This document shows positions 9,733 through 61,504 of a stretch of 64,000 nt of DNA, in pieces. The translations under genes and the position numbers were made by a program. The DNA is taken from NCBI GenBank assembly GCA_965232235.1, contig OZ246960.1, positions 871,058-935,057 of the forward strand. Direction: 5' to 3'. Origin of the DNA: Candidatus Poribacteria bacterium. GTDB taxonomy: Bacteria; Poribacteria; WGA-4E; JAJDTR01. Position 1 is the stretch's first letter. Each line of letters opens with the position of its first letter. Under the pieces are notes generated by a model that was given only the letters and a program-made list of their open reading frames with translations, was not told the origin of the DNA and ran no database searches.

Positions 9733-9809
9733 AGGCATAAAAAAGGCCGCTGTCGCCTGGGGAGCTATAAAACAACCACGACTAAAGTAGACATAGAACA
9801 AGGTGTATC

Positions 9810-10972: not shown

Positions 10973-11013
10973 TACCCCTTATCGGACTTCCTTAAACCCG
11001 AGGTAAAGCACCA

Positions 11014-11230
11014 TGAAATATACCTGCTGCTACTCGTTACCCTCTTCGCCTGCAGCGAAACCGATAATACACTTATGCCGGTAGCATGGTTCCATACGGG
11101 GAAGGAGTCTGGACCTGGTCTGGTAGACCCGACTGGCCCGATTACGACACCTAGATATTCGAGTCTTTCTGTCTGGTGTCGGATATCCCCATGCCGGCCA
11201 CAACCTACATTTTGGTAGAAGACCGTTTCG
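11014..11230 (+). pseudogene. frameshifted lipoprotein remnant
   Basis: The +1 frame after codon 4 reads LLLLVTLFACSETDNT.., a lipobox. Confidence 0.35.
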
Positions 11231-11419
11231 TCCACATGGCCGAAGGCGAGCTCCGATCCCAGGAAGTCGTTTTCTGGAGTATATGTCCGCCCCGGACCAC
11301 TAACGACTCGCCCCCTAGGTTCGAGGCGCAAATAAAGCCGATGCACGAACGATCCCGACACTTGCCGTCTAACCCTTGAAGTTAGATACTGTACAGCAAT
11401 TACTATCCATCAGAACACC

Positions 11420-12223: not shown

Positions 12224-12235
12224 CGGAGACCGCTC

Positions 12236-13309: not shown

Positions 13310-14427
13310 ATTACCTAATCTTCGTACTTGCACTATTAAGCTTTCTTGTTGCCTCCGCTCTCCTCGTGCTCTCCCTCGACAGTTGCTCGCCGAACGCAGA
13401 TGCCGCTTTCCAGGCCGACTGGATTCACCTCTCCGGCACTGAGGCGCTGGAGGCGGAGCTTCTCGAAACCGATGGCAACCGCCTCTACGCCGCCACTTGG
13501 GAAGGAGTGTACATCTCCTTGGATAATGGTTACACCTGGCGTTATGCCGAGATTGCCCACGGTCTTGAACAATTTTATATTATCGCAATTGGAATAGGGC
13601 GCAATGCCGTGTATGCAGGGACACAACACCACGGCGTATATCGCTCCGACAGCCACGGCAACACCTGGAAGCCCAAAAGAAACGGTATACACATATTCGA
13701 TTTAGATGAACCCGATCTAGAACCCCATTACGCAGCCGTTAAGCAAATACTCGTCACCCGTTCCGGCACAGTCATTGCCGTGGGGTACCATGCGGGCACC
13801 TATATATCCACCAACCGAGGCGAAGCATGGCATGGCACCGACGAGTGGCGGTACACCAGAGAACATCTGGGCTTGGACGACGTGCCAATAGGCTATGATA
13901 TCTGGTCGATGACCGAGTTCGACGGCTATTGGTGGGCAGTTACTTCGAGCGGTTCGTACAAATTGTGCCGTTCCTCTGACGACGGCGAAACGTGGGAAGG
14001 TCTTCCCTACTGGGTAGCCGGCGGAAGTATCGCCGAGTACCCTCATGTAGTCGATTGGATAGTGCTCAATGATCGGTTATACGTCGCCGGAGCTGGAGGC
14101 CTCGGGCGATGGAACGAAGCCGAACTTGCTTGGGACGATTTCAGCCAAGGACTCCCGCCGGAACGGATAGCAAGCCTAGCGGTTAATCGCGGCCGTATCT
14201 TCGCCGGAACAAGGAACAACGGCGTGTGGGTGTTTGATGAGCTATCCGAAACGTGGATTCCCGCTGGTCTCGACGGGTTGAACATTTACGACCTCATATC
14301 CCATCAATCCGACCTGTACGCCGCCACGGACGAGGGCATCTACCGCGCTTCAATCCCGACCGTGCAACCCTACGGCAAAGCCGCCGCAACTTGGGGCGCC
14401 CTGAAACACGAAGCTCTCGCCAAATAG
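13306..14427 (+). CDS. secreted BNR/Asp-box beta-propeller protein, paralog 7 (373 aa)
   Basis: True start is MNYLIFVLALLSF at 13306 (ATGA overlap); the upstream part of ORF 13147.. is an antisense artefact; 133 bp at 14103..14236 are identical to 13001..13133. Confidence 0.75.
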   Translation: MNYLIFVLALLSFLVASALLVLSLDSCSPNADAAFQADWIHLSGTEALEAELLETDGNRLYAATWEGVYISLDNGYTWRYAEIAHGLEQFYIIAIGIGRNAVYAGTQHHGVYRSDSHGNTWKPKRNGIHIFDLDEPDLEPHYAAVKQILVTRSGTVIAVGYHAGTYISTNRGEAWHGTDEWRYTREHLGLDDVPIGYDIWSMTEFDGYWWAVTSSGSYKLCRSSDDGETWEGLPYWVAGGSIAEYPHVVDWIVLNDRLYVAGAGGLGRWNEAELAWDDFSQGLPPERIASLAVNRGRIFAGTRNNGVWVFDELSETWIPAGLDGLNIYDLISHQSDLYAATDEGIYRASIPTVQPYGKAAATWGALKHEALAK

Positions 14428-14545
14428 CCCGAGTTTCTACGTATAGAAAATCCATCGGATTTACATCAGAGTTGAATTGGTCAACCGTTCGCTCCGGCAG
14501 CACGGCATGTTTAAACAGCGTCGATTTAACTCGCAAAGCCCCAGT

Positions 14546-29623: not shown

Positions 29624-29821
29624 GATGGTATCGCGCTTTGATTTCCATTTTGACGATCCCAGATACGACCTGTAATTGCGTTGACGTGTTTGCTTGGACG
29701 GTTGATGTTGTCTTTTTCGCTGCGCCACTGTGAACCATCCTTTCGAGTAAATGTCAGCACTCCTGTAGGGTGCGCACCTGTCGAAGTTATGAAATATGAG
29801 TAGGATGGGCGATCCCCCTGG

Positions 29822-30245
29822 GACCTCTATCGCGCTCATTATCCATTCGCTTGATTCTCCCACAATCGGGGAACAATAAGCTCTATCGGGATTGGATACC
29901 GTACCCAATGTCTCACGTGGCACTCCGCTGGAGTGCAGGAACTGGGACTTTTCCTTTCTATTGACATGCCGCCCCTCCGGGGCGGGGAGCCGCGTTCTGG
30001 AGGGGATCTCTGTGGGAACGCTATCGCGCTCATTATCCATTCGCTTGATCCTCCCACAATCGGGGAACAATAAGCTCTATCGGGATTGGATACCGTACCC
30101 AATGTCTCATATGGCACTCCGCTGGAGTGCAGGAATTGGGACTTTTCCTTTCTATTGACATGCCGCCCCTCCGGGGCGGGGAGTCGCGTTCTGGAGGGGA
30201 TCTCTGTGGGAACGCTATCGCGCTCATTATCCATTCGCTTGATCC
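29822..30245 (+). repeat. 194-bp tandem direct repeat (2.15 copies), each unit holding R1 + hairpin + ttctattgacat + GC hairpin
   Basis: The consensus starts at 29827, 30021 and 30215. Confidence 0.8.
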
Positions 30246-39089: not shown

Positions 39090-39270
39090 TCGCTATCGCG
39101 CTCATTATCCATTCGCTTGATCTCCGTCTGGAGTGGGGAGTCGCGATTCGGAGCGGATCTCTATCGCAGGATTTACTATCGCCCGGGATCAACTATCGGG
39201 ATTCACTATCGCGCTCATTATCCATTCGCTTGATCGTACGTTATTCACTCACTTGATTCTTATCAGCCGG
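39090..39270 (+). repeat. cluster of R1-family repeats
   Basis: At least four consecutive tatcgc..ttgatc units. Confidence 0.6.
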
Positions 39271-43317: not shown

Positions 43318-43923
43318 GTAGGGTGGGCATTGCCCACCATCTCCCTCTTGGTGCAAACCCCCAGTCCTAGCGCAACCACAGCCCAATTTCCGAGGCGACG
43401 ACCATTTTTCCGGCTTTGAACAATCAAGCTACGTGCACGCGTGTTCTCGGAACGGGCGGGGAAACCCCGCCCCTACATTGTTTTCCTCGAACTGCCCACC
43501 CGGTTGAATTATCTTACGTTATAGACGGAAAAAGGCTGGTGCGCGGTGCGCACCCTACGATGCTATCGCGACCAGGAGGTCGCTCCTACCAAATCCTACA
43601 ATCACAACAATTTTACGTGAGTAGGGTGGGCATTGCCCACCATCTCCCTCTTGGTGCAAACCCCCAGTCCTAGCGCAACCACAGCCCAATATCCGTGGCG
43701 ACGGCATTTTTCCGGATTTGATAAATCGAGCAACGTACCTGCGTGTTTTCGGAACGGGCGGGGAAACCCCGCCCCTACATTGTTTTCCTCGAACTGCCCA
43801 CCCGGTTGAATTATCTCACGTTATAGACGGAAAAAGGCTGGTGCGCGGTGCGCACCCTACGACACTATCGCGACCGGGAGGTCGCTCCTACCAAATCCTA
43901 CAATCACAACAATGTTACGTTAG
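43318..43923 (+). repeat. 303-bp tandem duplication (2 copies) made of four REP-like hairpins
   Basis: Copies start at 43318 and 43621; each contains gtagggtgggcattgcccacc, ggcggggaaaccccgcccctaca, ggctggtgcgcggtgcgcaccctac, atcgcgaccgggaggtcgctcctac. Confidence 0.8.
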
Positions 43924-45210
43924 TTAAGCGGCTGCGCGAATGTTCGCTCTCGTACCGCCGATGTCGAAACAGTCGAACTGATTATCCCGCATAATGCGTT
44001 CGGCGATAGCCATGGCTCGCTTTTCGGTCATATAACCGTCCGCTATCTCCGATTCGAGCGCGCGGGTGATTTCAGACCGCGCTTGGATGGCGTACGCCAT
44101 GGCGCTGGTGGGCCAGTGGGTGTCGCCGCCGAATGCAAAAATCTTGTTAATCGGCACCGCATGGATAAAGCGGCGTAAAAAGTCGCGGGAACTGTAGGGG
44201 TCGATGCTCCACGCCCAACACATGTCCACCCAGATGTTTCGATAGTGCTTCGCTAGTGCGACCAGCTCATCGTTGTACGGGTAGGCGATGTGCATCAGGA
44301 CGAATTTTGCGTCCGGGTAACGGGCGAAGAGTTCGCACATGTTCCCTGCCGCAATCCGGCTCACGGGCATGCGGTCGTTTCCGGCGTAGTAGCCGGTATG
44401 GATTTTGAACGGCAGGTTGTGTTCGATTGTCAGTTCGACGCCGCGCGCCCAGCACCAATCACCGAGGCAGAGTTGGGATTGGAGGTGCATCTCCTCTCCG
44501 CGCAACGCGGCTGCGAGGGCGGTGGACGCTTCCGCGTCGCTGCGCTCCGTCCAATCGAGGGTTCGGCTGTATGCGTGCTGAGCTTTTACGGCAATGGCAT
44601 TGGGAGCGTGTTTTGAAAAGATGGCTTCCATGCCGCGTTTGAGCGAGCCGAGATCGGTCACCACGACGCCGGTTTCCGCCTCGATTTTCTCGGGATCAAT
44701 TTCGCCGTTGCAGAACGTCCGCCACGAAAGGTCGTAGAGAAAGAAGTCCAGCCCCGATTTATCCGGCGCGCACTCCCACTGCCCGTCATCGGTCTGCGTG
44801 TGGTCAAGGTTGGCTACGTCGTGCAGCAGCCGGTAGCGTTCGCCCGGTTCTCGAAGGACGCGGTTCTTGTGCTGCGCCATTTCGATGGATTTTCCGGACA
44901 GTTCGTCGATGTCGTAGGCGTGATTTGCGATGAGTCGGACCGCTTCGCCGTATCCGGTAAACTGCGTCGCCTCCCATGCCCTCCGGACACCTTCAAATCG
45001 TCCGGCGATATCCGGGTCGTTTCCATCCTTGAGGCGGGACATCGCCTGCGGCGACGCACCGGCGGTGATGAGGTCCGCGACGACGTAATTCCCGAACAGG
45101 TCTTGCAGTATATCGGGACCGTTGTCCACCCATGCGGGTTCTCGATCTAGGTGTTCGTGCGTATCGACCATTGGAGTTTCTTGAATGTGTTGCGCCAAAT
45201 CGGTCGGCAT
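43924..45210 (-). CDS. amidohydrolase-superfamily metal-dependent hydrolase (TIM barrel)
   Basis: N-terminal VDTHEHL metal-binding His pair; 428 aa. Confidence 0.45.
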   Translation of the reverse strand: MPTDLAQHIQETPMVDTHEHLDREPAWVDNGPDILQDLFGNYVVADLITAGASPQAMSRLKDGNDPDIAGRFEGVRRAWEATQFTGYGEAVRLIANHAYDIDELSGKSIEMAQHKNRVLREPGERYRLLHDVANLDHTQTDDGQWECAPDKSGLDFFLYDLSWRTFCNGEIDPEKIEAETGVVVTDLGSLKRGMEAIFSKHAPNAIAVKAQHAYSRTLDWTERSDAEASTALAAALRGEEMHLQSQLCLGDWCWARGVELTIEHNLPFKIHTGYYAGNDRMPVSRIAAGNMCELFARYPDAKFVLMHIAYPYNDELVALAKHYRNIWVDMCWAWSIDPYSSRDFLRRFIHAVPINKIFAFGGDTHWPTSAMAYAIQARSEITRALESEIADGYMTEKRAMAIAERIMRDNQFDCFDIGGTRANIRAAA

Positions 45211-48410: not shown

Positions 48411-49961
48411 CGAACTCGTCGCTAGTAGCGCCTTCCGAAGTACCTCGTTATCAAACGCCTCAAGCAACGCGCTGCCATAAATTTGCACGTAGGCATCGAT
48501 TGCCATCTTTTCGGCAGCGTCGATAGGCTCATCCAACCGCGCCGCGGTCAATTCCCCGCTTTCGAGAATCTCGGAAATGGTTTTCGAGAAACTTCTAATC
48601 TCTTCGTCACTCGCCGCGCCGATCCCTTCCAACGCTCTCGCGGCTTGCGTCAAGTCTGTTAGCGTTTGCGTGCCAGCAAGTTCCGGGTGTTCCGCATAAT
48701 CTTGAAGTTGCTGCTCCAGTTCATCCGCCCCGTGAAACGCTTCAATTTCGATATCCAGTTCCTCCAACCGCTCGAGCGATTCCTTCATAAGATGCCCCGC
48801 CGTCACTAACGACTGCCTATTGGAAATGCGTGAACTTTCATCGACCTCCTCAGCACCTTGTACCGCGATAAGCAGCAGTTCGGCAACCCGCTGCTTATCC
48901 CCTCGGTCAGCCGCCTCGCCAATCGCGAAACGCAGCCCCGTCTTCACATCATCCGGCACTGTCGTTGTCCCTGTCTCAAATAATTCCCGAAACTCCTCAA
49001 ACGCTTCCGATTCTCCTCCCGCCTCAATCGATTCTCGGAATTTATCGAACCTATCGGAGCCCGACGGCAGTTTGGCGACCCCTTCCGCGATTTGCTTGAG
49101 CGTATCCGTAGCTGTCTCGTTCCTTCCGTCGGCTGAACCAAACATCTCCTCACCCAAAGCGGTTATCCGATCAGTCTCCGTTGATGTCAGGTCAACGCCC
49201 TCAAAGATTGACGGATCGGCGCCGCCCTCCTCCTTGCTGCTGCCGACATCTCCAGTCATTCTCACTCTTTTCTGGTGGATCATCTTCACTCCCGCCTCGT
49301 CTCCGATAACTCCGGATGTCACCGCCTCCTCCACATCACTCGCAAACTCCAAGAACGTGTCGATCTCAATCCGTTCAGCGCCTGGCGCCGAATCCTCGGG
49401 CAATCCATCTATCTCTCGCAGGCCCGACTCATAACGTCCGTTATTTTCCGTCGGCGTGTCCCCGAGCAACCCTCCATCATACAGGTTCGTCCACTGATCC
49501 GCCTTCCGCTTCCGTTCCGCCTCGTCCACTTCCGTTTTTGTCTCCGGCGGCGTCTCCAACTCAATCCCGATCCGCTTCAGAATCGCCTTTTCAAACCTGT
49601 CCGCTTTTTCCGTATTTCCCGTCTTTTCCGCTCTATCCAGCAGATTCCCGAGAACCTCCAGATCCGCCTTCTTCGTTTCGTTTTCCTGCTTTAGCTCGTG
49701 TTCGGACGTTTCCCGCTCTTGCTCCGCCGCTTCTTCCGTCCACTGATCCTGAATCTCCTGTAGCTGCACCCGCTTGTCGTCAAGCAACTGCTGCGCCAAC
49801 CGCTTCTCACGCTCCGTCTCCGCCTGATGCACCATCACCTTCGCCTCAAGGTAGGCGCGAATCCCGGCGGCTAAGCGCCGTGCGGTGTCTGCCCCGATTT
49901 GCGTGCCAACGGGCGGTTGGTACGATGTGGTTTGTCCATCGATTCTCTGAATGTTTGGCAT
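48381..49961 (-). CDS. acidic coiled-coil protein (526 aa), possibly phage scaffold-like
   Basis: Glu/Asp-rich, low complexity; the N-terminal ~20 codons overlap an R1 repeat. Confidence 0.35.
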   Translation of the reverse strand: MPNIQRIDGQTTSYQPPVGTQIGADTARRLAAGIRAYLEAKVMVHQAETEREKRLAQQLLDDKRVQLQEIQDQWTEEAAEQERETSEHELKQENETKKADLEVLGNLLDRAEKTGNTEKADRFEKAILKRIGIELETPPETKTEVDEAERKRKADQWTNLYDGGLLGDTPTENNGRYESGLREIDGLPEDSAPGAERIEIDTFLEFASDVEEAVTSGVIGDEAGVKMIHQKRVRMTGDVGSSKEEGGADPSIFEGVDLTSTETDRITALGEEMFGSADGRNETATDTLKQIAEGVAKLPSGSDRFDKFRESIEAGGESEAFEEFRELFETGTTTVPDDVKTGLRFAIGEAADRGDKQRVAELLLIAVQGAEEVDESSRISNRQSLVTAGHLMKESLERLEELDIEIEAFHGADELEQQLQDYAEHPELAGTQTLTDLTQAARALEGIGAASDEEIRSFSKTISEILESGELTAARLDEPIDAAEKMAIDAYVQIYGSALLEAFDNEVLRKALLATSSSIGEDQPSE

Positions 49962-50108
49962 GAATTACCTCCGTAATGCGTAATAGGGCCTCTATCGCAC
50001 GGGACTTAACTATCGATCAACGGAACGGATAGTGACTGCGATAGGAAGTCCTACTCGTTATTCGCTCGTGTGATCGTTAGCAGCCAATTTGCTTAGCATA
50101 GTCTGTTC

Positions 50109-50137
50109 TTGACTCTAATCTCACAATCTGCTATAAT
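50109..50137 (+). promoter_or_regulatory. near-consensus sigma-70 promoter TTGACT-N17-TATAAT
   Basis: TTGACT at 50109..50114, 17-nt spacer, TATAAT at 50132..50137; AAGGAAA ribosome-binding site then ATG at 50196. Confidence 0.6.
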
Positions 50138-50195
50138 GCCATCGTCGCTAGCGAAACGCGACAATGCGAATCCTCCTCTTGCAAAGGAAAACGCT

Positions 50196-50651
50196 ATGAA
50201 CCTCAGCGACACAGCCCAAATCGCAGGTCTAGTCATTTTATACCTAGGTGGCATATTCCTAATCGGCAACTACATGGCAACCACACTCGGTAAACGCATG
50301 GATGATCTGGGCAAACGCATGGACGACATGCGATCCGACATCAACGCCCGTATGGGCGATATGAACACCCGTATGGACGAGATGCGAACCGACTTGCTTA
50401 TGCGCATGGGCGACATGCAATCCAACATCAACGCCCGCATGGGTGACGTTAACAATCGCATAGACGATATGAACACCCGCATGGATGAGATGCGAACCGA
50501 CTTGCTTTCGCGCCTGGGCGACATGCAATCCAACACCAACGCCCGCATGGGCGATATGAACACCCGATTTGACGATATGAACACGCACATGGATGAGATG
50601 CGATCCGACCTGCTTACGCGCATGGACGACATGCGATTCCAACTCAGCTGA
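50196..50651 (+). CDS. membrane-anchored Met-rich tandem-repeat protein (151 aa)
   Basis: Start moved to the Met downstream of the promoter; N-terminal TM helix, then about 11 repeats of RM[DG]DMxxxINA / RMDEMRTDLL. Confidence 0.55.
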   Translation: MNLSDTAQIAGLVILYLGGIFLIGNYMATTLGKRMDDLGKRMDDMRSDINARMGDMNTRMDEMRTDLLMRMGDMQSNINARMGDVNNRIDDMNTRMDEMRTDLLSRLGDMQSNTNARMGDMNTRFDDMNTHMDEMRSDLLTRMDDMRFQLS

Positions 50652-50800
50652 GAACACGATACCCTGGCGACAAAAGTCGACACCATCGATCAAAAGCTAA
50701 CCCACCACATCGGCGATCACGAAATTCATGAAAAATGGCAAACATGATTTCCTGATAAATACACAAGGCCACCGTCTCTCCTCTCCGTGCTCTTCATGTT

Positions 50801-52594
50801 TCACACCCTGACAACACTTCGCCTCTGTTTCCTAACTGCTGCCTGATCGATCCTCTGCTGCGCTGTCGTCATGATGCGAGAGCGGCAGGCGCCCTGCACC
50901 GCGTCCGGTGCATCGTTGTGATCCGCCGACGGGAATTGCCTGAACTGCTTCCAGAACTCCGGCGGCAACTCCCGCTCGTTGAACGCCAGCCATCCGTTCG
51001 CTATCGCAGGCTCAAGCGTTTCGATCCGGTCTTCCTTGTTCTGGTGCTGCTCGTGATACGTAATCACCCCTTCAAAGCGATGGCGCTCTTTCGTGGCACG
51101 AAACGCATGATCGGTTGACATTCGTATTGTGCCGTCCGTGTCCGGTCTCTGTTCGCATACGAAGTTGGTCTTCGGGTAAGCGGGCGCCAACATCGCTTCC
51201 GCGCGCTGCGCCAGCAGGATGGCGTTCTCCATCTGCTCCGTCAACGGAGCGCGCTCCAGCCACGCCAGCATCACGTACCCGTTCACTCCGGATAGCGAGT
51301 CGGGATTCATCGATTGCCCGCCGAGGAGCGGCTCCCACGCCACCACAACGGCGCACGCATAACTGTTCGCAACCGCATCGCGGCCGCCCATGGTGTCGAG
51401 ATACGTCGTGAATCCGCCGATATCGTGCCACGGCACGACACGCCCGTCGCTCCGGCGAAAGCCTTCGTCCGTGACGGAGAACGTGATCGCTGCGTCCATG
51501 TTGAACAGCGACATGGAGGGATCGCGCGCATCGTTCTGGAGTTCGCGCATGACGCTGTGGTAGCCGCGTTCCACGACCTCCTTCCGCACTCGGAGATACG
51601 GCAACTCCTTCTCCCACAGCATCGACACGCCCGCCGTCATCTCATTCTCATGTTCGTTGAAGAACGCGTCCGCCTTGCTCTCGCGATCCAGGTCATCGAG
51701 CGTCGTGTCGCTGTAGAACCGCTCCCACTCTTTCCACAGATACTCGGCGGTAGGGTGATAAACATCTTTGGGATAACGCACCGCTTCGTAGCGCAGCGTC
51801 TCCCAACCGGGCACGGTGCGGAGATGTTCGGACAGCGATTCGGGGTGTTTCACCGTGTCAACTATCATGGTGTTGGAGTGCTTGCTCCCCAAGTCGCCGG
51901 CGTACATAAAGTCGGTCATGAACCAGTCCCTGTCTTCTTCGCGCAGCTCGGGATTCAGGCAGCGTTTCGGATCTTCGATGTCGTCGCACAGTTTCAACGT
52001 CGGGCGCACATCGCCGAGCAGTGCGCCCCGAGGCGACGCGCCCCGTCCGAGCGGTCTTAGCCCAACGCCGTTGCTGGTATCGGTCTCCGTCTTTGACCAC
52101 GGATCGCCGACCAGGTCGCCAAAATCTTGTCTGATAAAAGGATTGCGTTCGAGGACTTGGCGAATTTCGGTGATGCGTTGGCGCGCCATGCGCTCGTTTC
52201 GGCCCACGATGAGGATAAACTCCTCAGGCGGTCTATCCATGGCGATATCGAAGTCCTTGTAGCAGATCCGCCAGATGGGGATTAGGCGGTTGACAATTGT
52301 TGTCTTTCCGGTGCCGCGCGGCGCTTGGACGTTTACCTGTTGCCCGTAGTCGCCGGGTTTTATCGCGTTCAATATCTGAAGATGAAAGTCTTGAAATTCG
52401 AGGATGCGATAGCTGATGTTTCTGATATAGTACCAGATGAATAGTTCCGGATACAGATATCCGGCGTGCGCTCTAAGACTCCTCGCCATCTTCGGATTCT
52501 TGCGCATCTGCCTCACAACATGCTGCGATATAAGTAATCGCGGCAGCGTTGACATCGTCTGGATGAGAGTCTTCGAGGGTACTATCTTTGTCAT
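50801..52594 (-). CDS. phage terminase large subunit (TerL)
   Basis: Walker A VQAPRGTGKTT; acidic LKLCDDIED box; C-terminal RNaseH-like nuclease motifs including SADHNDAPDAV; the real start may be the internal Met at 52489. Confidence 0.65.
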   Translation of the reverse strand: MTKIVPSKTLIQTMSTLPRLLISQHVVRQMRKNPKMARSLRAHAGYLYPELFIWYYIRNISYRILEFQDFHLQILNAIKPGDYGQQVNVQAPRGTGKTTIVNRLIPIWRICYKDFDIAMDRPPEEFILIVGRNERMARQRITEIRQVLERNPFIRQDFGDLVGDPWSKTETDTSNGVGLRPLGRGASPRGALLGDVRPTLKLCDDIEDPKRCLNPELREEDRDWFMTDFMYAGDLGSKHSNTMIVDTVKHPESLSEHLRTVPGWETLRYEAVRYPKDVYHPTAEYLWKEWERFYSDTTLDDLDRESKADAFFNEHENEMTAGVSMLWEKELPYLRVRKEVVERGYHSVMRELQNDARDPSMSLFNMDAAITFSVTDEGFRRSDGRVVPWHDIGGFTTYLDTMGGRDAVANSYACAVVVAWEPLLGGQSMNPDSLSGVNGYVMLAWLERAPLTEQMENAILLAQRAEAMLAPAYPKTNFVCEQRPDTDGTIRMSTDHAFRATKERHRFEGVITYHEQHQNKEDRIETLEPAIANGWLAFNERELPPEFWKQFRQFPSADHNDAPDAVQGACRSRIMTTAQQRIDQAAVRKQRRSVVRV

Positions 52595-53117
52595 TCAGTA
52601 ACTTTTGCAACTTCTCCCCGTGCGCAGCCGCCCTGTCTTGCGCTTCCAACGATTGCACCCGCGCCCGCATCTGGCTCAGATGTGTGCTGTCGCTCTCGGC
52701 GTTCATCGCCTTGATGTCGGCAATCAGCCCCTTCATGGCTTCCACATGGGCGGGGATGAGCAGACCCGTCGTGCGTTCCAACTCCTCCTGCCTCGCACGG
52801 TGCGCTATCGCGCCGTATTTTTCGCTGTCAAAGTGAGGGCTGTGCGGATTAAATGCCTGAATCGCCTCTTCTATCTCCCGATAATCCTTACAATAGTTCT
52901 GCTGGGGTGTCTTGTCCTCAATTTTAGATTGGCAATCGGGACAGGCCTCATAGATTTCGCGGATAACCGTATCGGGCGAGTCAAGTATCGCGAGTTTCCT
53001 CGCAATCATCTCGCGTATGGCTTTCCCTTCAAGATGCTTATTCCATTCAACTCTTTCCTGTGCCACATCCACATGAGAACTCCTGAACCCCGGTGGTGAG
53101 TAAATAAAGACTCGCAA
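52473..53117 (-). CDS. hypothetical protein; candidate small terminase subunit by position only
   Basis: Immediately upstream of, and overlapping, the TerL start; CPDC Cys pair. Confidence 0.25.
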   Translation of the reverse strand: MRVFIYSPPGFRSSHVDVAQERVEWNKHLEGKAIREMIARKLAILDSPDTVIREIYEACPDCQSKIEDKTPQQNYCKDYREIEEAIQAFNPHSPHFDSEKYGAIAHRARQEELERTTGLLIPAHVEAMKGLIADIKAMNAESDSTHLSQMRARVQSLEAQDRAAAHGEKLQKLLNDKDSTLEDSHPDDVNAAAITYIAACCEADAQESEDGEES

Positions 53118-53908
53118 AAGTAAGTCTCGATCGTCAGATCAAGATGGAGCCCTTTCTGGCTCGCAAGTCTCCATTACTCACTGTTCCTTAAATCACCACT
53201 GTCGACCCTACGACAATCTCTAGGCTTTACGTTCTGGCGGCAATCCTCGCGTCTGCACTACGAAGTTGGTTCATGCAATAAAAAAAACCCGCCAGCGGTG
53301 TCACTAAAAAGCAGTGGCTAGCGGCCAGTCGCCAGTGACCAGTGAAAGCCAGGAGATTCTCTTGGCGTTACTGACCACTAACTGCTGACCACAAGCCACT
53401 GGGTTTCAATGACTTCCACTAACGGGCTTGTCTTGGTTGCGTTTTCCGATGAACGCGGTTCAAATTGTTTTATGTACGGCTGCTATGAGGACGAGTGCCG
53501 ACAGCGGCAACCGACGTAATTTTACCATGTTGGGGCGGGTTTTTCAATCGTCAAAAATAAGTTTGAACACTGGGGGAGAAGCAGTGAGGAGGGAAGGATG
53601 AGGGGGCAGAGACGGGAAGAAGAGAGTAGGGGAATGCGTGGAAACAATAGATCGGAGAAAATAGAGGAATGGGCACGGTGGTTGGGTAAGAGGATTGGTT
53701 AAAGGGATTCTAGAGATTCCTTTCGCCATCATTATGGGAAATCTGTCGCACCGGATGTGCTTTCGTTTAACCTCCTTTGATCGAATTGTATCCAGTAGGA
53801 CATGGTGGAGAAACTCCTTTCTTTTGCTTGGCGTTTCCGAGCCCTATTGTCGCCCAGATGATGACCATTGTTCCAGTCGAATGGATCTCTTATTCAACTG
53901 TCTAGTTT

Positions 53909-54313
53909 TTGGGGGTAATTACAGCTTTCTATCTGACTTTGAACACGGCGTTTCTGGCACTGATTGGATATACCCTCAGATCTGGTACAAACAATGAAAA
54001 TTTAACTTCGATACTTTTTATTCCCATTGCATCATTATTGGGGTTAGTTCTATCTCACTTGTGGTTCAGAACAATAAAATCTCATAAGCAACTCAATATT
54101 GGGAAGTTTGATGTTATTCTTCTGATGGAAAGAGAGTTGCCGTTTGCGCCATACACTGCCGAATGGAAATCTCTTGAAGAAGGAAAGAATCCCAATAGGT
54201 ATCAAGAAATTACAAACATTGAGTCGAGGCTACCGAAGATTTTTGCCGGAATGTACGTGGTATTCGGAACACTGCACATTGTTCCAATATTAGTCAGTAA
54301 AATCGGCGGGTAA
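53909..54313 (+). CDS. small 2-TM membrane protein (134 aa) inside the cassette
   Basis: Two hydrophobic helices at the N-terminus and another at the C-terminus; low-GC codon usage. Confidence 0.4.
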   Translation: MGVITAFYLTLNTAFLALIGYTLRSGTNNENLTSILFIPIASLLGLVLSHLWFRTIKSHKQLNIGKFDVILLMERELPFAPYTAEWKSLEEGKNPNRYQEITNIESRLPKIFAGMYVVFGTLHIVPILVSKIGG

Positions 54314-54520
54314 AACGTCAAGCACCTCTATCGTTTTCCATGCCCACTCCCTATCACTTTCTTTCTCTTCCTCAGATAAATCATCATAGTTGATTTTAAT
54401 TTGGCGGCGCCATCTGGAAATATTTTCGTCTGTGAGGTTCTCAAGCATATAACTCGTCCAGTGCGCCCATTGCTCATGTTCGAGCGCTGCGAGCTTTTCA
54501 ATCAGTTCTTTGGAAACCAT
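54290..54520 (-). CDS. small hypothetical protein (76 aa) inside the cassette, convergent with the membrane protein
   Basis: ORF track from the internal Met MVSKELIEKL. Confidence 0.3.
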   Translation of the reverse strand: MVSKELIEKLAALEHEQWAHWTSYMLENLTDENISRWRRQIKINYDDLSEEEKESDREWAWKTIEVLDVLPADFTD

Positions 54521-55347
54521 TTTTTCTTCCTTAAATACTATGATTGTTAAGCAACCGTAACTAACAAAATTACAGATCAATATTATAACAGTTTCTCATA
54601 ACATGTCAACTCGTTCCGTCCCCACCCTTGCTTGAACCTTCATCACTTCCACCCGTTATACGTCCCCGCCTGATAAAAAGCTACTAATAAACTAGTAGTC
54701 ATTATGTACTCTTTCCGCAGCACATTTGTCTCTTAATGATATAAAACACTGTTCTGGCGGAAAATTTTTTCGCAAACACGCATTCCAGCGACGTGGTAGA
54801 TGCTTGATGCTGAGTCAAGTCGATCTCTATTGGACTAACTATGGGAACTAACACCGCCTTCGCTATTCACACAGTTGATCGCTCGGTTATTCGCAATCCA
54901 CTTGCGTGAGGGATTTTCTATCGCGGTCATTATTCATGCGCTTGATCGGACGAGTGCCAACGGGGTCAGCCGAGATAATTTTAACATGTTGGGGCGGGTT
55001 TTTCAATCGTCAAAAATCCTGCTGAACATTGGAGAGGGCTGTGGCGAGTCGGGAGGGATGAGGGGGAGAAGACGGGAATTCGTGAAACAAAAAAAAAGCC
55101 CGCTAGCGGGAGCGTTCATGGAGGCGAAACCACTTCCGCTGACGGGCTCGGCTTGGTGTTGCACACTGGAACTTGTAGTGTGCGACTAGCTTGTTTTTAT
55201 ACACGTTAGGAGGTGTATATTTTCATAGACGGGATCGGTTTTTGGAGGTTTAGAGAGAAGGGCGTTTTTTTTGGGGATTAAGGGGAACCGCGGGGGAATG
55301 GATAGCCAGAAAACGGGGATGGATAGAGCGCGCCGATTGACTGTTGA

Positions 55348-55704
55348 TTAATTGTCCCGTAATCTGGGCGCGGTGAAACGGAACAGCAGGATTAATGCGA
55401 TCACGATGGTTAGCACCAGGAGCACTCGATTATTGGTTTCTCTGTCTCTTTTCTCGCGGTGCTCACGCACGTCTATCTGTGTCCTGAGGTTGGCATTTTC
55501 GACTTCTGCTTCGGAAAGTACGAGTTTGAGTTTCGCGTTCTCTTCCCTCAAACCCTTGATTGTCTCGCCCTGATCGACGGTACTAATCGTGTCCTCGGAA
55601 CCCACATCGGCTCTTACGACCGTCCTTGAAGCGCCAAAATGGGGTGGCACACAGATCGCACATAGGAGTATTATGCACCGGAAAAGGGTTTTCGGGTCGA
55701 GCAT
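55348..55704 (-). CDS. small coiled-coil protein with an N-terminal signal and a C-terminal TM helix
   Basis: ORF track. Confidence 0.3.
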   Translation of the reverse strand: MLDPKTLFRCIILLCAICVPPHFGASRTVVRADVGSEDTISTVDQGETIKGLREENAKLKLVLSEAEVENANLRTQIDVREHREKRDRETNNRVLLVLTIVIALILLFRFTAPRLRDN

Positions 55705-56057
55705 GTTTGGCTCCGTGTGCGTCGGGTTGGGGCGCGTGACGGAGGAAGGGCGCCCTCAGTGATGTTAAACATAGCACGGCTGCCGCGGTTTGTCAACGGG
55801 AGGAGGCAGGATTGGACAGACTTGTCGCGTGGTGCGGCGGTCGGGCGGCGCAACCGAGATCGGTGATGACGGAGAAAACGGGAGGGATGGGAGTGGAAAC
55901 CATGGAGTCTGTCAGGAGATGCATTCGGATAGAGTGTTGTTCATGGGTGTAATGAGAAACATCTTGACGCGAGGGACTGCCTCCCGTAGTATGAAGGATA
56001 GGTGACACCGCGAACGGAGACGGACCGACCAAGATTTTGAAGTGTCTATAAGGTACA

Positions 56058-57023
56058 ATGACGAAGATGATTAAAAGGGACCTACAATATTACGTGGAGA
56101 AGATGAAGCGCTTGAAGATTGACAGGGCGCACGGTCCGGCGCCGCATAAGCCGGCGCTGCTGCTGTCGGTCATCGCGCTGATTGAGGATGGGCTAGTTAC
56201 AGAGAATCGAATTGAGTTGTCCCCCGAAATGGCGGAGATCTTCATCCGATATTGGTCGAGGGTCACTAATCGAAAGCCTGATATTTCGTTGCCATTTTTC
56301 CACCTGCAGAGTGATGAGTTCTGGCATCTGCACCCAAACACGGGTTACGAAACGGCTCTGCGTGTTGCCAACCAGATTAAAGGGATTTCTCGGATTCGCG
56401 AGGTTGTTGCATACGCTGGTTTGGACGATGAGTTATTTCTGTTACTCACTGACGCGGTCGATAGAGAGACGATTCGTCGAACACTAATACGTACGTATTT
56501 CCAGGAATATATTAAACAGATTGGGGAGTTGATTGAGGAGGAGCAGCAGATCGGAGCGTACAGAGAATCGTTAATTGACGAAGTTGAATCGCCGTTTTCA
56601 ACGACGAAACCAAAAAGGCAAACTGGGGCTTACACCAAGGTACGCGATGCCGGGTTTCGGCAAGCGATCATGCGACTATACGATTACACTTGTGCGGTTT
56701 GCGAGTTGCGTATCGTCACTATGGATGGCGAGAGTGCAAGTGAAGCGGCTCATATCATCCCGTTTCGTGTTTCGCAGAATGACGATACACGGAACGGAGT
56801 CTCATTGTGCAAATTGCACCATTGGGCGTTCGACAGAGGACTGTTTTCGTTGAGCGAGAACCATCGGGTGGTTGTTTCCGGGTTGATGTCGGAGGATCGT
56901 CCAACGGAGTGGAAGTTGACGGAACTTGAAGACACACGTATTCAGTTACCGGATAGGGTTCAATTTCGCCCTGCACAGGAAGCAATGGCGTGGCACCGGG
57001 AAAATGTGCTCAAGCAGAATTGA
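56058..57023 (+). CDS. HNH_2-type endonuclease with an N-terminal DNA-recognition-like domain; candidate modification-dependent (type IV) restriction enzyme
   Basis: CAVCEL..EAAHIIPF..NGVSLCKLHHWAFDRGLFSL HNH motif at the C-terminus; N-terminal HKPALLLSVIALIEDG block. Confidence 0.5.
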   Translation: MTKMIKRDLQYYVEKMKRLKIDRAHGPAPHKPALLLSVIALIEDGLVTENRIELSPEMAEIFIRYWSRVTNRKPDISLPFFHLQSDEFWHLHPNTGYETALRVANQIKGISRIREVVAYAGLDDELFLLLTDAVDRETIRRTLIRTYFQEYIKQIGELIEEEQQIGAYRESLIDEVESPFSTTKPKRQTGAYTKVRDAGFRQAIMRLYDYTCAVCELRIVTMDGESASEAAHIIPFRVSQNDDTRNGVSLCKLHHWAFDRGLFSLSENHRVVVSGLMSEDRPTEWKLTELEDTRIQLPDRVQFRPAQEAMAWHRENVLKQN

Positions 57024-59319: not shown

Positions 59320-59960
59320 CGTAACGGGCGAGGGAAGATCTCTATCGCCTTCCTTGTTCAGTCAGTTGATCCTCGCCCCTACAGGTCAAATGGCTCGACA
59401 GAGCATAGTCGCGATTCGGAGATCGCTCCTACAACCGTATAGCTCACATTGCACTCCGCTGGAGTGCGGAGATTTGACGTATGGTGTTTCTATTGACATT
59501 GCACTGCGCTGCAGTGCGATGGAAGGTGTGGGACTTACTATCGCGCTCGTTATTCACTCGCTTGATCCCACCCTACAACTGCTAAATCGCGACCTGGAAA
59601 TCGCTCCTACAAATGGAGAGAAATCTCTATAGCGCCCGATGCCTCACATTGCGCTCCGCTGGAGCGCATAGGCGAATATGGCGATTTTCTATTGACATGC
59701 CGCTCCGCTGGAGCGGGGAATCGCGACCGGGAGGGGGATTTCTATCGTCCTCGTTATCCACTCGCTTGATCGTTCCTACAGGTCAAATCATGCCGGTGTC
59801 CATGCCCGACGCGACATTTTGGTTAAGGGGATTTCCTATCGTCCTCCCTATCCGGTCGGTTGATGGATTCCCGCGGGATTTACTATTAGGATTTGCTACC
59901 GCACTCACTATCCGTTCGCTTGATCCCTCGCTATTCGGTCGGTTGATCTCCGTTGGTTGA
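59320..59960. repeat. dense cluster of R1 repeats plus two ttctattgacat+hairpin modules and GTAG-REPs
   Basis: Seen directly. Confidence 0.65.
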
Positions 59961-61504
59961 ACCGGTTGCGAAAACGTGTCATCATCCCAACCGTAGCCGG
60001 TGTCGAATCCCACAAACTTGATTAACTCGCTAATTGACATGTGCGCGCCCAGCGCCGCCATGATCTGCGCGATCTCCAGCTTGCCAGCCGGCGTGTTCGG
60101 CAGTGAGGTCGCGTCGGGCATCTTCATGCGGTATCCGATATACCGCGCCTCCTCCCTGAGCGAATCAGGGAAATCAATACCCCGCCGCCAAATATGAGCC
60201 GCAAGCGGACGGCGGGCAAACTGTTGTGTCAACGAAATCAGCAACCGCATCCGATGAAGCCGGAATTCGTTCATCTCGCGGACGTTGTTGCTTATCTGGT
60301 TAAACGCCGCCCACTGCAGCGTGTTCACCATTCTGCCGCTGGCGTTGGAGGACGGGGCTTGCCCGGCGAACACCGGATTCAGAGACGGCATCATGTCCGC
60401 AATCCCTTGAATCGAGTGTTGCAAGAGATTGTACAGAATCGGCGGCACCGCTTCCGTTGGAAACGGTTTGATATCTCTATCAAGGTCGTACTCCTCCTCG
60501 ACCTCGATGTTGACGCCGTATCCCGTAAACACCTGCTCCATATCCAGCGCGCCGCGCTTCGATATCATGCGGCCTATCGACAATCGACGCAGCATCAGGA
60601 TAAGGTTGGAGTAAACCTCGTCGAGAAACTTCTGCTGCGACCAGCACAGTGCTCCGTAACCGTGTCCCCAAAACGATCGCGATTGATTACTGCTGTGTTT
60701 GATGACGGGGAAATTCCGCCACGTCGCAAACGGGAAATCGGGGTAATAGTACGGCGTTGTCCGAATCCGCACGACGTCGTTGTCGATTGCCGTCGCATAG
60801 AAAACCTCCGTGTCGCCCGCGTCCTTCACCTGTATGCCCTGCATCTCGGCAATCCATCGCCGCATCCACAGTTCCCGAATCCTGAACTGTCGCTGCTCAT
60901 TATCCAGATTTGAGCCGGTTTTTGAATCGGAAATCTGGTAGTCGGGATAGTGGTAGCGGATATAGCGCTCGTTCTGTGTCGTCTCGTGCACCAGGAATCC
61001 CGCATTCGACAAATCCGTGCTCGTTGCGTCCGGATCGACGGAGAACGCCAGCGGCGAAATCGGTACCATCCGCACCACGCGATAGCGCGGGTCATACACC
61101 GCTTTCGAGATGGCGTGTCCGAAGATCAGGTTGTGGTAAACCGCATCTTCAAGGCGCTCACCCTCCTTGTCCACCTCCTGAAACATCTGGGTCCACTGTT
61201 TCAAATCCTCGATATTCTCGGCATCCTCAATGCTGTGGCGGCTCCTGTCCGGCAGCAGTTCTATCCGTGCCGCCTGCTCCGTGAACGCCGGCACCAGACG
61301 CAGGATTCCCTTCTGAATCTCGGGATTCAGGCTCTCATGCGTTATCGGAGACACATTCCCAATAGACGTGCCATCGACGTACGCACTGCGATTATTGTAA
61401 ATCGCGAGCTCATGACGCATCCGGCTGTGGTGTTCCTGCGCCGCACCCTGCGCCTCGTCCATGAGGCTGAAAAATTTTTCGGCTGATTTTTTGTTTATCA
61501 TCAC
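59783..61504 (-). CDS. putative phage portal protein; the C-terminal ~55 codons are repeat-derived
   Basis: Size and position in the module; the last part of the ORF reads through the R1 repeats (..ERIVSAVANPNSKSRGNP..). Confidence 0.35.
   Translation of the reverse strand: MMINKKSAEKFFSLMDEAQGAAQEHHSRMRHELAIYNNRSAYVDGTSIGNVSPITHESLNPEIQKGILRLVPAFTEQAARIELLPDRSRHSIEDAENIEDLKQWTQMFQEVDKEGERLEDAVYHNLIFGHAISKAVYDPRYRVVRMVPISPLAFSVDPDATSTDLSNAGFLVHETTQNERYIRYHYPDYQISDSKTGSNLDNEQRQFRIRELWMRRWIAEMQGIQVKDAGDTEVFYATAIDNDVVRIRTTPYYYPDFPFATWRNFPVIKHSSNQSRSFWGHGYGALCWSQQKFLDEVYSNLILMLRRLSIGRMISKRGALDMEQVFTGYGVNIEVEEEYDLDRDIKPFPTEAVPPILYNLLQHSIQGIADMMPSLNPVFAGQAPSSNASGRMVNTLQWAAFNQISNNVREMNEFRLHRMRLLISLTQQFARRPLAAHIWRRGIDFPDSLREEARYIGYRMKMPDATSLPNTPAGKLEIAQIMAALGAHMSISELIKFVGFDTGYGWDDDTFSQPVQPTEINRPNSEGSSERIVSAVANPNSKSRGNPSTDRIGRTIGNPLNQNVASGMDTGMI

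Follow-up and report, generated by a model that had tools for sequence, protein, structure and literature searches.

What is the AT-rich segment that lies between two direct repeats in a Candidatus Poribacteria genome, and how did it come to be placed beside a phage packaging operon? A first-pass annotation of the 64,000-nucleotide stretch of DNA analyzed here, hereafter referred to as the window, described the segment as a cassette bounded by the repeats and encoding a protein with two transmembrane helices (2-TM) and a small convergent partner. It was thought to be a mobile toxin/antitoxin or abortive-infection module. The explanation that we consider reasonably probable as a whole combines a slot defined by promoter repeats, a decayed TIR-8xMP-RyR defense module as its cargo, a signal-quenching role for the RyR-like protein, and turnover by recombination. 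Coordinates of the relevant features are provided in Table 1.

Table 1. Features of the slot and its surroundings, numbered from the first nucleotide of the window.
Feature	Coordinates	Strand	Description
214-aa gene (52473-53117) and large terminase gene (50801-52594)	50801..53117	-	Operon downstream of the DR1 promoter and leader
Predicted terminator T1 of the leader	53280..53440	-	5' arm (box) 53411-53437; 3' G-rich arm 53288-53299; U-run 53280-53287
DR1	53489..53618	.	Within-window BLAST and 32-nt core
Promoter-like site in DR1	53519..53547	-	TTGAAA-17-TAAAAT, extended -10 TG; consensus scan; faces T1 and the terminase operon
Left part of the cassette, non-coding and retained	53619..53923	+	Within the first alignment block with L001
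849-bp deletion junction	53924..53927	.	Alignment blocks abut with a 4-nt overlap; L001 5686-6534 missing
8xMP effector remnant	53924..54313	+	Codons 50-178 of the 178-aa ortholog; PF24838; 97% identical to P0001
Intact gene for the 76-aa RyR-like (R12-type) protein	54290..54520	-	Convergent to the 8xMP gene, 24-nt overlap; PF02026, phmmer, family profile
Predicted promoter of the RyR-like gene	54582..54609	-	TTGACA-16-TATAAT with TG; 12/12 consensus matches, L001 equivalent 11/12
Two copies of the 40-nt dispersed motif	54841..54946	+	Second copy abuts DR2; position kept in L001, L003, and L008
DR2	54948..55078	.	Within-window BLAST and 32-nt core; encloses a promoter-like site at 54978-55006 (-)
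Predicted terminator T2	55089..55160	-	Box 55131-55157; G-rich arm 55098-55111; U-run 55089-55097; ends the upstream 118-aa gene unit

Repeats and predicted promoters and terminators around the slot

Within a variable region, the segment forms one cargo slot, which on the minus strand immediately precedes the packaging operon formed by the 214-aa gene and the large terminase gene. The latter belongs to phrog_38 (E=1.8e-52), and a P22-like portal is encoded at 59783-61504. The region had been called phage-like, and indeed the host element is phage-derived and resides in the genome of a sponge symbiont. The synteny of the two operon genes is kept in loci L001, L008, L009, and L093.

The GC content between 53900 and 54750 is 0.394 versus a window mean of 0.529 (sd 0.037). 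This is the lowest 850-nt stretch in the window, and the AT-richness first noted is thus confirmed. A BLAST search within the window aligned DR1 with DR2 over 131 columns at 78.6% identity with one gap (E=9e-28). The repeats are real, but the length of ~155 bp first assigned to them is reduced to ~131 nt, the similarity fading past 53618 and 55078. Common to both is an exact 32-nt core with two occurrences in the 64 kb, where none is expected by chance. The first-pass annotation had suggested a search for further copies and for empty sites, with an ordinary dispersed repeat family as the outcome that would speak against a cassette. Within Poribacteria genomes the core was found at terminase-type loci only, and it had no match in IMG/VR. 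On these grounds, together with its count of two in the window, the dispersed-family reading was rejected. Note that the core in the fetched loci is present by construction, these having been retrieved with a near-exact pattern; copies with a diverged core were also found, namely DR2 of L003 (four mismatches) and DRb of L008. A separate 40-nt motif, which is not part of the repeats, is truly dispersed throughout the lineage (29 copies), and in addition to the two copies beside DR2 a degenerate one, a weak match, lies at ~53717-53745 in the left part of the cassette.

The -35 and -10 elements of a promoter-like site fall exactly on the identical core. In each repeat the module is composed of TTGAAA-17-TAAAAT with an extended -10, ~25 transcribed nucleotides, and ~70 nt of C/T-rich DNA upstream. 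According to the consensus scan, the site in DR2 faces into the cassette, toward the RyR-like gene. The leader that includes T1 folds with a z-score of -8.6. The fold of the alignment pairs its box to the G-rich arm, and the loop of T1 holds an optional ~94-nt hairpin (53310-53403). L001 and L005-L009 retain this element, and the short version in L009 displays a 15-bp stem followed by a U-run (z=-5.6). For T2 the predicted fold is a ~13-bp stem with a U-run (z=-3.0), and a match to the box was found. The same conserved 27-nt box provides the 5' arm of both minus-strand terminators. Each repeat was originally said to end in a poly(A) tract and a GC-rich palindrome. This is so for DR2 (55089-55111), but at DR1 the element is positioned ~190 nt outside of the repeat (53280-53299). 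The minus-strand terminator hairpin proposed from these elements is retained, although they constitute merely the 3' arms of larger intrinsic terminators. In sum, DR1 and DR2 are two copies of a predicted minus-strand sigma-70-type promoter module of the 214-aa/terminase operon, bracketed by predicted intrinsic terminators, with all such assignments made by consensus and folding predictions. A search of Rfam gave no match at gathering thresholds; the permissive mode returned far-sub-threshold lookalikes of miRNA hairpins, and these on the leader hairpin only.

The truncated membrane-protein gene and its convergent neighbor

Both of the open reading frames initially described are present, and their 3' ends overlap by 24 nt as reported. 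The plus-strand frame at 53909-54313, which encodes 134 aa from a TTG start, does not survive as a complete gene, however. Its product matches the Pfam 8xMP family (PF24838) with E=7e-29 and 100.8 bits (gathering score 30), and covers profile positions 22-135 of 136; the full-length ortholog P0001 covers positions 1-135. Upstream of residue 50 the window translation is unlike the ortholog. The frame consists of the remnant preceded by five unrelated codons leading from the TTG, which is not accompanied by a Shine-Dalgarno sequence, and the conserved 8xMP residues Y31, K32, R44, R45, and N49 are missing. In the 900 nt upstream, a consensus scan revealed no promoter candidate on the plus strand, the nearest being at 52929-52956.

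The reason for the truncation is evident from a comparison with the intact locus L001, to which the window aligns in two blocks: 50799-53927 corresponds to 2560-5685 of L001, and 53924-55593 corresponds to 6535-8211. The intervening 849 bp contain a candidate thsB promoter (5724-5752 of L001, plus strand), the thsB gene encoding the TIR protein, and 8xMP codons 1-49, all of which are lost in the window. Imperfect short repeats, GGTAGGTACACCTT and GGTAGCTAATGCTT, are found in L001 at the two ends of the lost segment. No TIR gene is present in the window, as it belongs to the deleted segment. The opposite polarity, with the window ancestral and L001 carrying an insertion, was rejected because the window effector frame is devoid of the conserved N-terminal part of the 8xMP family. 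By this alignment the 2-TM protein is a dead, 5'-truncated remnant corresponding to the 3' two-thirds of an 8xMP gene, and the predicted TIR system is dead in the window because the deletion removed its sensor gene. Taken by itself, the feature in the window is a relic of a putative TIR-signalling-type system and not a working one. For 8xMP, no sequence relative was observed in the PDB, no fold relative was returned by Foldseek (best E=0.8), and a literature search on 8xMP/PF24838 produced nothing relevant. Neither the 134-aa nor the 76-aa protein had a match in PADLOC or PHROGs.

These observations bear directly on the proposal of a toxin/antitoxin pair. A two-gene module that is functional as it stands, with a 2-TM toxin and a small convergent antitoxin, would account for the occurrence, within the AT-rich insert, of a small membrane frame next to one for a small acidic protein. 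It is highly improbable, however, in light of a membrane frame that has lost its first 49 codons together with the conserved residues they specify, and that has neither a Shine-Dalgarno sequence nor a nearby plus-strand promoter candidate. Moreover, the genes are convergent rather than co-transcribed, no toxin/antitoxin match was obtained in Pfam or PADLOC and no defense model was matched, the partner is RyR-like with no recognizable antitoxin, and a TIR gene precedes 8xMP in all of the sampled intact orthologs. The other half of the proposal, namely an accessory and compositionally foreign cassette of the abortive-infection type, was correct in spirit.

The 76-aa protein scores 24.7 bits against PF02026, which is under the gathering score of 27.4, and several members of its family have a precomputed PF02026 match. 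A phmmer search of the PDB led to RyR repeats (E=2e-6), and with a profile built from 48 family sequences all ten PDB matches were RyR repeat proteins (best E=2.4e-9). The window protein differs from that of L001 by a single residue. With a Shine-Dalgarno sequence, AAGGAAG, and the consensus promoter listed in Table 1, the gene is intact and equipped with a predicted promoter and ribosome-binding site of its own.

Among the nearest known counterparts is RyDEP, a group of phage proteins with an RyR domain by which 2'/3'cADPR is cleaved or sequestered (Lopez Rivera et al. 2026, PMC13232231). Both belong to the PF02026 superfamily. His 15, Trp 18, and Asp 56, which are invariant across the 48 RyR-like homologs, align with the catalytic and ligand residues His 75, Trp 78, and Asp 117 of RyDEP by way of a B. 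thetaiotaomicron RyR protein, and the corresponding H-x-x-W and K-x-x-D motifs are invariant. The more distant members of the subfamily are, like RyDEP, phage-encoded, and stand alone: those of L099-L101 precede the terminase and portal by a few genes, and those of L096-L098 and L109 lie among small phage genes. There are clear differences, however. The 76-aa protein is half the size of RyDEP, contains one repeat, and is missing both the N-terminal α1-α2 half and the GWxYG...HPC segment. The position of RyDEP His 100, a phosphate contact, is occupied by Arg 39/Gln 40, and a RyDEP profile gave no significant similarity (E=0.04 when searched against four sequences). In addition, the 76-aa gene adjoins and travels with a TIR defense module, whereas RyDEP is a lone phage gene.

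The TIR-8xMP-RyR module and proposed turnover of the slot

A gene for ThsB_TIR, followed by 8xMP and then the convergent 76-aa gene, is found in L001, L002, L003, L093, and L106/L107. Contigs of close Candidatus Poribacteria relatives have these three genes in the very slot occupied by the window's remnant. In the intact orthologs the 178-aa 8xMP begins 4 nt after thsB, and every sampled intact 8xMP ortholog has a ThsB-type TIR gene in front. The ortholog TIR scores 61.7 bits against PF08937 and matches the PADLOC ThsB models. From this gene content the AT-rich cargo is a foreign module of three genes, namely thsB, 8xMP, which encodes a small membrane protein with three predicted helices, and the convergent RyR-like gene.

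For the wider survey, loci were retrieved with an 8-sequence 8xMP alignment, a 50-sequence alignment being too diverse for the purpose. A TIR gene lies directly upstream on the same strand in ~48 of 85 sampled 8xMP loci, TIR-8xMP fusion proteins account for five of ten extended family members, and the 8xMP family comprises 2,217 representative clusters. TIR-8xMP is a widespread two-gene module. The RyR-like gene is carried by ~4 of the ~85 loci and is therefore dispensable for the core system. By gene neighborhood its linkage to TIR-8xMP recurs in four independent contexts: the terminase slot; L106/L107, where the triad is beside methyltransferase and metabolic genes; L004, where it is situated in a defense island with all three genes pseudogenized; and L092, a low-GC prophage with another gene order in which RyR, TIR, and 8xMP are co-oriented. 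Within Poribacteria the RyR-like gene is convergent and not co-transcribed with TIR-8xMP. The window and L004 represent two independent dead copies of the triad.

The intact orthologs resemble Thoeris systems in that a gene for a small multi-helix membrane protein directly follows one for a ThsB-family TIR, and in that the module occurs in defense islands and prophages. The TIR is 53% identical to a TIR of the '3TM' class; its identity to a type VII TIR from the same TIR cluster is 40%. A 'TIR + 3TM' configuration of Thoeris has been predicted (Yirmiya et al. 2025, bioRxiv 10.64898/2025.12.03.692087), and TIR-8xMP is probably that class, as judged by the 53% TIR identity. It differs from Thoeris types V (ThsF/DUF2270) and VII (ThsH/SLATT) in that its 8xMP effector has no sequence match to DUF2270 or SLATT, and in the third, RyR-like gene attached in some lineages. 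The window copy, devoid of the TIR gene and of the effector 5' end, is not a functional member. No description of an RyR-like third gene of TIR-8xMP was found in the literature, and neither 8xMP nor RyR is mentioned in the accessible portions of the text and supplements of that TIR survey.

The empty sites that were suggested at the outset exist in sister genomes. In L009 and L007 a single repeat joins the left flank of DR1 to the right flank of DR2, and all three triad genes are missing together. In L008 and L009/L010 other genes lie between the repeats. Given that the triad is present at other loci in which the repeats are missing, and that other cargo is found between them, the repeats belong to the slot and not to the cargo. 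They can no longer be viewed as the bounds of the cassette itself, but rather as duplicated promoter modules of the slot. Their distal halves are homogenized within a genome, a pattern to be expected from homologous recombination or gene conversion. Cargo would have come and gone through homologous recombination of one promoter repeat with the other.

Alternatively, the repeats might be attachment sites of an integron- or att-like type, with the 32-nt core as the crossover and the cassette moving by excision and integration. An identical core between diverged arms, single-copy empty sites, and cargo that differs between repeat pairs across genomes would be expected on that basis. We give this reading little credence, however. 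No recombinase domain was recognized among the ORFs scanned near the cassette, and no tRNA or tmRNA gene able to serve as an att site was found. Since the core coincides with the -35 and -10 elements, constraint on promoter function is a sufficient explanation for its identity. Further arguments against attachment sites are the ~131-nt span of the similarity, the homogenized distal halves, and the occurrence of the triad without repeats.

Recombination between promoter modules has possible parallels in phages. The 'morons' of Hendrix and colleagues are said to be autonomous accessory units between conserved phage genes, and PeSL promoter/stem-loop cassettes were reportedly described in T4-type phages by Arbiol et al. 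in 2010. Like these, the insert is of deviant composition (GC 0.39 versus 0.53), lies between conserved phage genes, and is missing in close relatives, as seen from the empty sites in L009 and L007 and the other cargo in L008. It has its own predicted promoter, and the repeated promoter-plus-terminator modules on either side of it could allow modules to be exchanged. It differs in host lineage, shows no sequence relation to them, and has repeats that copy the promoter and leader of the packaging operon. The locus suggests how ~131-nt repeats that duplicate the promoter of a packaging operon can serve as a place where defense cargo is swapped in a phage-derived element of an uncultivated sponge symbiont. 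Cargo in such a slot would appear to decay quickly, as judged by the two dead copies.

Possible roles of the RyR-like protein

In the mechanism envisioned, the TIR protein would sense infection and turn NAD+ into an ADP-ribose-derived signal. The signal would activate an oligomeric 8xMP membrane effector such that the infection is aborted. The RyR-like protein, probably a homodimer, may bind or hydrolyze the signal and would thereby define a threshold, return the system to rest, or protect the lytic cycle of the carrying element itself.

One possible form of this role, which is put forward tentatively, is that of a regulator encoded by, and dedicated to, a TIR-8xMP Thoeris-type system, with the RyR-like protein serving as a signal sponge or glycosidase for threshold setting, reset, or prophage self-immunity. 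It would then be the TIR counterpart of the ring nucleases of type III CRISPR systems (Crn/Csx families), which bind or degrade the second messenger of their own system. The analogy is functional only, in that both would be small, system-encoded binders or degraders of a second messenger; the fold and chemistry of the ring nucleases are unrelated to those of the RyR-like protein. Such a regulator would also constitute a bacterial precedent for the combination of an ADPR-derived signal, an RyR repeat, and a membrane oligomer known from animal cADPR/ryanodine-receptor signalling. If true, TIR immunity would contain built-in signal quenchers drawn from the very protein family that phages use against it, and the link between ADPR-derived messengers and RyR repeats would extend from animals and phages to bacterial defense operons. 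The quencher idea is directly testable with the intact loci L001, L093, L107, and L092.

Alternatively, the RyR-like gene may be a RyDEP-like anti-Thoeris sponge or hydrolase of the phage-derived element, simply co-carried in a moron slot and with no functional tie to TIR-8xMP. The characterized relatives are phage anti-Thoeris factors (PMC13232231), the distant members of the subfamily stand alone in phages, and the gene has its own predicted promoter, is oriented as is the terminase operon, and persists in the window after the loss of thsB. The joint behavior of the genes nevertheless renders this unlikely: the overlapping convergent pair moves jointly into the non-phage contexts of L106/L107 and L004, the independent prophage L092 has all three genes co-oriented, the empty sites lack the three together, and in L004 the three have been pseudogenized together.

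A positive role for the RyR-like protein, rather than the quenching role favored here, is improbable. In such a case it would be an adaptor that binds the TIR-made signal and gates an 8xMP channel in the manner of the R12 domain, which in eukaryotic ryanodine receptors is found at the cytosolic face. The physical linkage of a putative nucleotide-binding RyR fold to a membrane oligomer is consistent with this, as is the fact that cADPR is known to be made by bacterial TIR proteins and has been proposed to modulate RyR in animals (10.64898/2025.12.03.692087; PMC13232231). Most TIR-8xMP loci, however, are without the RyR-like gene, and thus 8xMP must sense the signal itself. A convergent orientation with a separate predicted promoter would be unusual for an obligate subunit, and the characterized RyR relatives antagonize signalling.

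The 8xMP remnant and the intact triad

Initially annotated as a possible mobile toxin/antitoxin or abortive-infection cassette, the AT-rich segment between two direct repeats is a genuine feature, but it is better described as what decay has left of a TIR-8xMP-RyR cassette of the Thoeris-like kind. Coordinates are provided in the table. Both ORFs assigned to the segment exist, and their 3'-ends overlap by 24 nt. The larger is not, however, a complete gene, in that the 5' part of 8xMP is missing. It matches PF24838 ("8xMP" in Pfam, a family of octameric membrane proteins) with an E-value of 7e-29, covering only profile positions 22-135 of 136, and its closest relatives are 178 aa long. Upstream of "AFYLTLNTAF", which begins at orthologue residue 50, the reading frame in the window consists of unrelated sequence that includes a stop.

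Features of the cassette and of the surrounding window
Feature	Position	Strand	Remark
DR1 (direct repeat)	53489-53618		
DR2 (direct repeat)	54948-55078		
8xMP remnant	53909-54313	+	134-aa ORF, TTG start
RyR-like gene	54290-54520	-	76 aa
Promoter-like site in DR1	53547-53519	-	consensus scan
Promoter-like site in DR2	55006-54978	-	consensus scan
Predicted RyR promoter	54609-54582	-	consensus scan, 12/12
Plus-strand promoter candidate nearest to remnant	52929-52956	+	consensus scan
Leader	53270-53515	-	
94-nt leader hairpin	53310-53403		
Terminator T1, 5' arm	53411-53437	-	conserved 27-nt "box"
Poly(A)/GC palindrome, left	53280-53299		
Poly(A)/GC palindrome, right	55089-55111		
Second box-and-terminator unit (T2)	55089-55160	-	just beyond DR2
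118-aa gene module	55091-55800		
HNH endonuclease gene	56058-57023	+	PF13391
Second variable slot	49961-50799		
180-aa coiled-coil ORF	50109-50651	+	internal repeats
Dispersed motif, 29 sites	5846-63106		e.g. 29827-29855, 39093-39121, 54918-54946, 59538-59566
194-nt tandem unit	29808-30243		three copies
Paralogous gene run	1900-14430		period ~1.1 kb
220-nt direct repeat	43403-43924		302-nt spacing

Locus L001, where the triad is intact, is syntenic with the window at 92-95% identity. In the alignment, window 50799-53927 corresponds to L001 2560-5685 and window 53924-55593 to L001 6535-8211, and from these two abutting blocks it follows that L001 5686-6534 (849 bp) is absent from the window. 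The missing segment held the best plus-strand promoter candidate (L001 5724-5752), the whole of the ThsB-type TIR gene, thsB, and effector codons 1-49. At its ends in L001 are short imperfect repeats, GGTAGGTACACCTT and GGTAGCTAATGCTT. The remnant has no Shine-Dalgarno sequence, and the nearest plus-strand promoter candidate from a consensus scan lies more than 900 nt upstream. Also lost are Tyr 31, Lys 32, Arg 44, Arg 45, and Asn 49, five of the most conserved positions in the family. We regard the remnant as a pseudogene. A comparison of window 52869-54536 with a further triad locus, L002, yields a mosaic: identity is 94.5% on the left side of the deletion junction and 99.0% on its right side, which suggests that strains have recently exchanged the right-hand portion of the cassette.

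Contigs with intact 8xMP orthologues all display one arrangement, in which a 138-aa ThsB-type TIR gene ends 4 nt upstream of 8xMP and a convergent 76-aa gene overlaps the 3'-end of 8xMP. Against PF08937 the TIR reaches 61.7 bits, and it also matches the PADLOC ThsB models. The 8xMP family comprises 2,217 clusters at 50% identity. A same-strand TIR gene lies immediately upstream of 8xMP in ∼48 of 85 sampled loci (80 metagenomic, 2 viral, and the Poribacteria loci, with many of the remainder ending at a contig boundary), and five of the ten 8xMP members with N-terminal extensions are TIR-8xMP fusions. TIR-8xMP is thus a widespread two-gene, Thoeris-like module. Among the effector classes in a TIR survey (Yirmiya et al. 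2025, 10.64898/2025.12.03.692087) is an untested one termed "3TM", which includes a TIR 53% identical to that of L001, the closest match among the classes sampled. As judged from this similarity, TIR-8xMP is probably the same system. The model of the intact 8xMP is all-helical (pLDDT 93.8) and has no relative among solved structures, either by sequence or by fold. Hydropathy analysis delineates two strongly hydrophobic helices, residues 79-97 and 155-173. A weaker stretch at residues 50-68, below the threshold of that analysis, is read as a putative third membrane segment.

The RyR-like protein and its genomic contexts

The smaller ORF encodes a minimal RyR-like protein. It reaches 24.7 bits against Pfam RyR (PF02026), slightly short of the gathering score (27.4). 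A phmmer search of the PDB retrieves ryanodine-receptor repeat proteins (E=2e-6), and a profile of 48 family members matches RyR repeat structures only (best E=2.4e-9). The family comprises 188 clusters. On the basis of its sequence, the gene in the window is intact; its product differs from that of L001 by one residue, and it is equipped with an AAGGAAG ribosome-binding site and a predicted promoter.

In RyDEP, the phage RyR-domain proteins that sequester or cleave 2'/3'cADPR, His 75 and Asp 117 form the catalytic dyad and Trp 78 stacks on the adenine (Lopez Rivera et al. 2026, PMC13232231). His 15, Trp 18, and Asp 56, invariant among the 48 homologues, align to these residues via a B. thetaiotaomicron RyR protein. 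The 76-aa protein is, however, half the size of RyDEP, lacks both the GWxYG...HPC segment and an equivalent of His 100, and shows no significant similarity to a profile built from RyDEP and its tested homologues. Gene identities, deletion, repeat architecture, empty sites, and triad recurrence are established, whereas the function of the promoters and terminators, the way in which recombination proceeds, and everything biochemical are inferred.

Among the genomic contexts sampled, the RyR-like gene occurs in three situations: within the triad of thsB, 8xMP, and RyR-like gene, as a defence-island orphan (L108), and as a small stand-alone gene in phage genomes. The triad occupies the terminase slot in the window, L001-L003, and L093; it lies beside methyltransferase and metabolic genes in L106/L107 (78% RyR identity), in a defence island with all three genes pseudogenised in L004, and, in the order RyR-TIR-8xMP, after the lysis genes of a low-GC prophage in L092. 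Because only ∼4 of ∼85 8xMP loci carry it, the RyR-like gene is an accessory rather than a core component of TIR-8xMP. This recurring partner of a TIR defence module is the most interesting element and is directly testable; no description of it, and no paper linking an RyR-domain gene to a TIR-effector operon, was found in the literature searched, which included the TIR survey.

The L004 triad (9570-10722) is a second, independent dead one, with the TIR down to 81 aa, 8xMP down to 142 aa, and a Trp-to-stop change in the RyR-like gene. Its island also contains MmeI-type restriction-modification, TIR_2, HD, AAA_15/21, and PLD-SNF2 genes.

Direct repeats and the variable slot

Direct repeats do flank the segment, but their length, first put at ∼155 nt, is ∼131 nt by within-window BLAST, in which the alignment (E=9e-28) spans 131 columns at 78.6% identity with a single gap. 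Common to both is an exact 32-nt core, ATGTTGGGGCGGGTTTTTCAATCGTCAAAAAT, which occurs only twice in 64 kb with 0 occurrences expected by chance. The AT-richness was likewise borne out: nowhere in the window is GC lower than between the repeats (0.394 at 53900-54750), where 850-nt windows average 0.529 overall with an sd of 0.037. The poly(A) and GC palindrome ascribed to both repeats directly follows DR2 but not DR1, its left-hand counterpart lying ∼190 nt outside the latter. The distal repeat halves are closer to each other within one genome than to their orthologues in other genomes, which suggests gene conversion between them.

The first-pass annotation called for a search for other repeat copies and empty sites. 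In a scan of one genome per species, the core was located at six loci, all terminase-type and all from Candidatus Poribacteria MAGs. Since retrieval used a near-exact pattern, every fetched locus contains the core by construction; core-diverged copies also occur (L003 DR2, with four mismatches, and L008 DRb). IMG/VR gave no matches to the core. With two copies in the window and others solely at such terminase loci, the repeats do not behave as an ordinary dispersed family. Cargo-free sites occur in OZ240209.1 (L009) and OZ242354.1 (L007), where one repeat copy connects the flanks that lie left of DR1 and right of DR2 in the window. Two repeats bracket unrelated genes in L008 and L009/L010, and a paralogous terminase locus on the same chromosome (L006) has an identical type of promoter-leader module. 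The triads of L004 and L106/L107 have no repeat copy, and thus the repeats, a duplicated promoter, go with the slot rather than with its cargo. These repeat-free triads are still AT-rich (GC 0.38 versus 0.55) and are bracketed solely by the ubiquitous 40-nt motif of the lineage. The remnant sits next to the packaging operon of a sponge symbiont's phage-derived element, in a variable slot bounded by the promoter repeats.

An identical core might be taken as the mark of a site-specific mechanism moving the cassette. The promoter constraint explains that identity, however, and the ORFs scanned in the vicinity of the cassette include no recognised recombinase; this mechanism is considered unlikely. 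Cargo would most simply be gained and lost by homologous recombination between the repeats.

Two copies of the 118-aa gene module (gene, box, and terminator) are observed in L007, at 4003-4711 and 6279-7116, which points to modular duplication within the variable region of OZ242354.1. The HNH endonuclease gene (PADLOC HNH model, E=1.5e-22) lies in the cassette's variable region between the 118-aa and 263-aa genes. The second variable slot, positioned between a 526-aa ORF and the terminase, holds the coiled-coil ORF; it does not align to L001, whereas both of its flanks do.

Minus-strand signals and other repeats

Read on the minus strand, the core of either repeat resembles a promoter, with the elements TTGAAA-17-TAAAAT and an extended -10 TG. 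A conserved leader 3' of the DR1 site ends in a strong predicted intrinsic terminator, T1, whose 3' arm is the G-rich segment and U-run already spotted in the first-pass annotation. In the window genome, the T1 loop contains a 94-nt hairpin. The 214-aa gene and the large terminase come after T1. Given the second box and terminator beyond DR2, the minus-strand order is T2, DR2 promoter, 40-nt motif, RyR promoter, RyR gene, antisense of the effector remnant, DR1 promoter, T1, and terminase operon. Antitermination-controlled late leaders are exemplified by lambda PR'-tR'. Here the putative terminator comes within 75-230 nt after the putative promoter, ahead of late phage genes, and by analogy the DR promoter-leader may resemble such leaders.

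The leader next to the DR1 promoter has an unusually stable predicted fold (z=-8.6) and no Rfam match; it may represent a leader of the antitermination type or else an sRNA. Its hairpin is present in L001, L006, L007, and L093 and absent from L005, L008, and L009.

A dispersed ∼30-40-nt motif, CTATCGCGCTCATTATCCATTCGCTTGAT, occurs at 29 sites (0 expected by chance), 23 of them on the plus strand; the copies that were compared with the ORF map lie between ORFs. It displays an internal ∼11-12-nt periodicity, and its element TTATCCA(C/T)T resembles a DnaA box. Related Poribacteria contigs carry the motif as well, and in each of its contexts the AT-rich triad is bracketed by it; each copy of the 194-nt tandem unit contains one. 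The genes of the paralogous run share blocks of 60-83% identity and carry what we take, by eye, to be Asp-box-like motifs. The copies of the 220-nt direct repeat are 93% identical.
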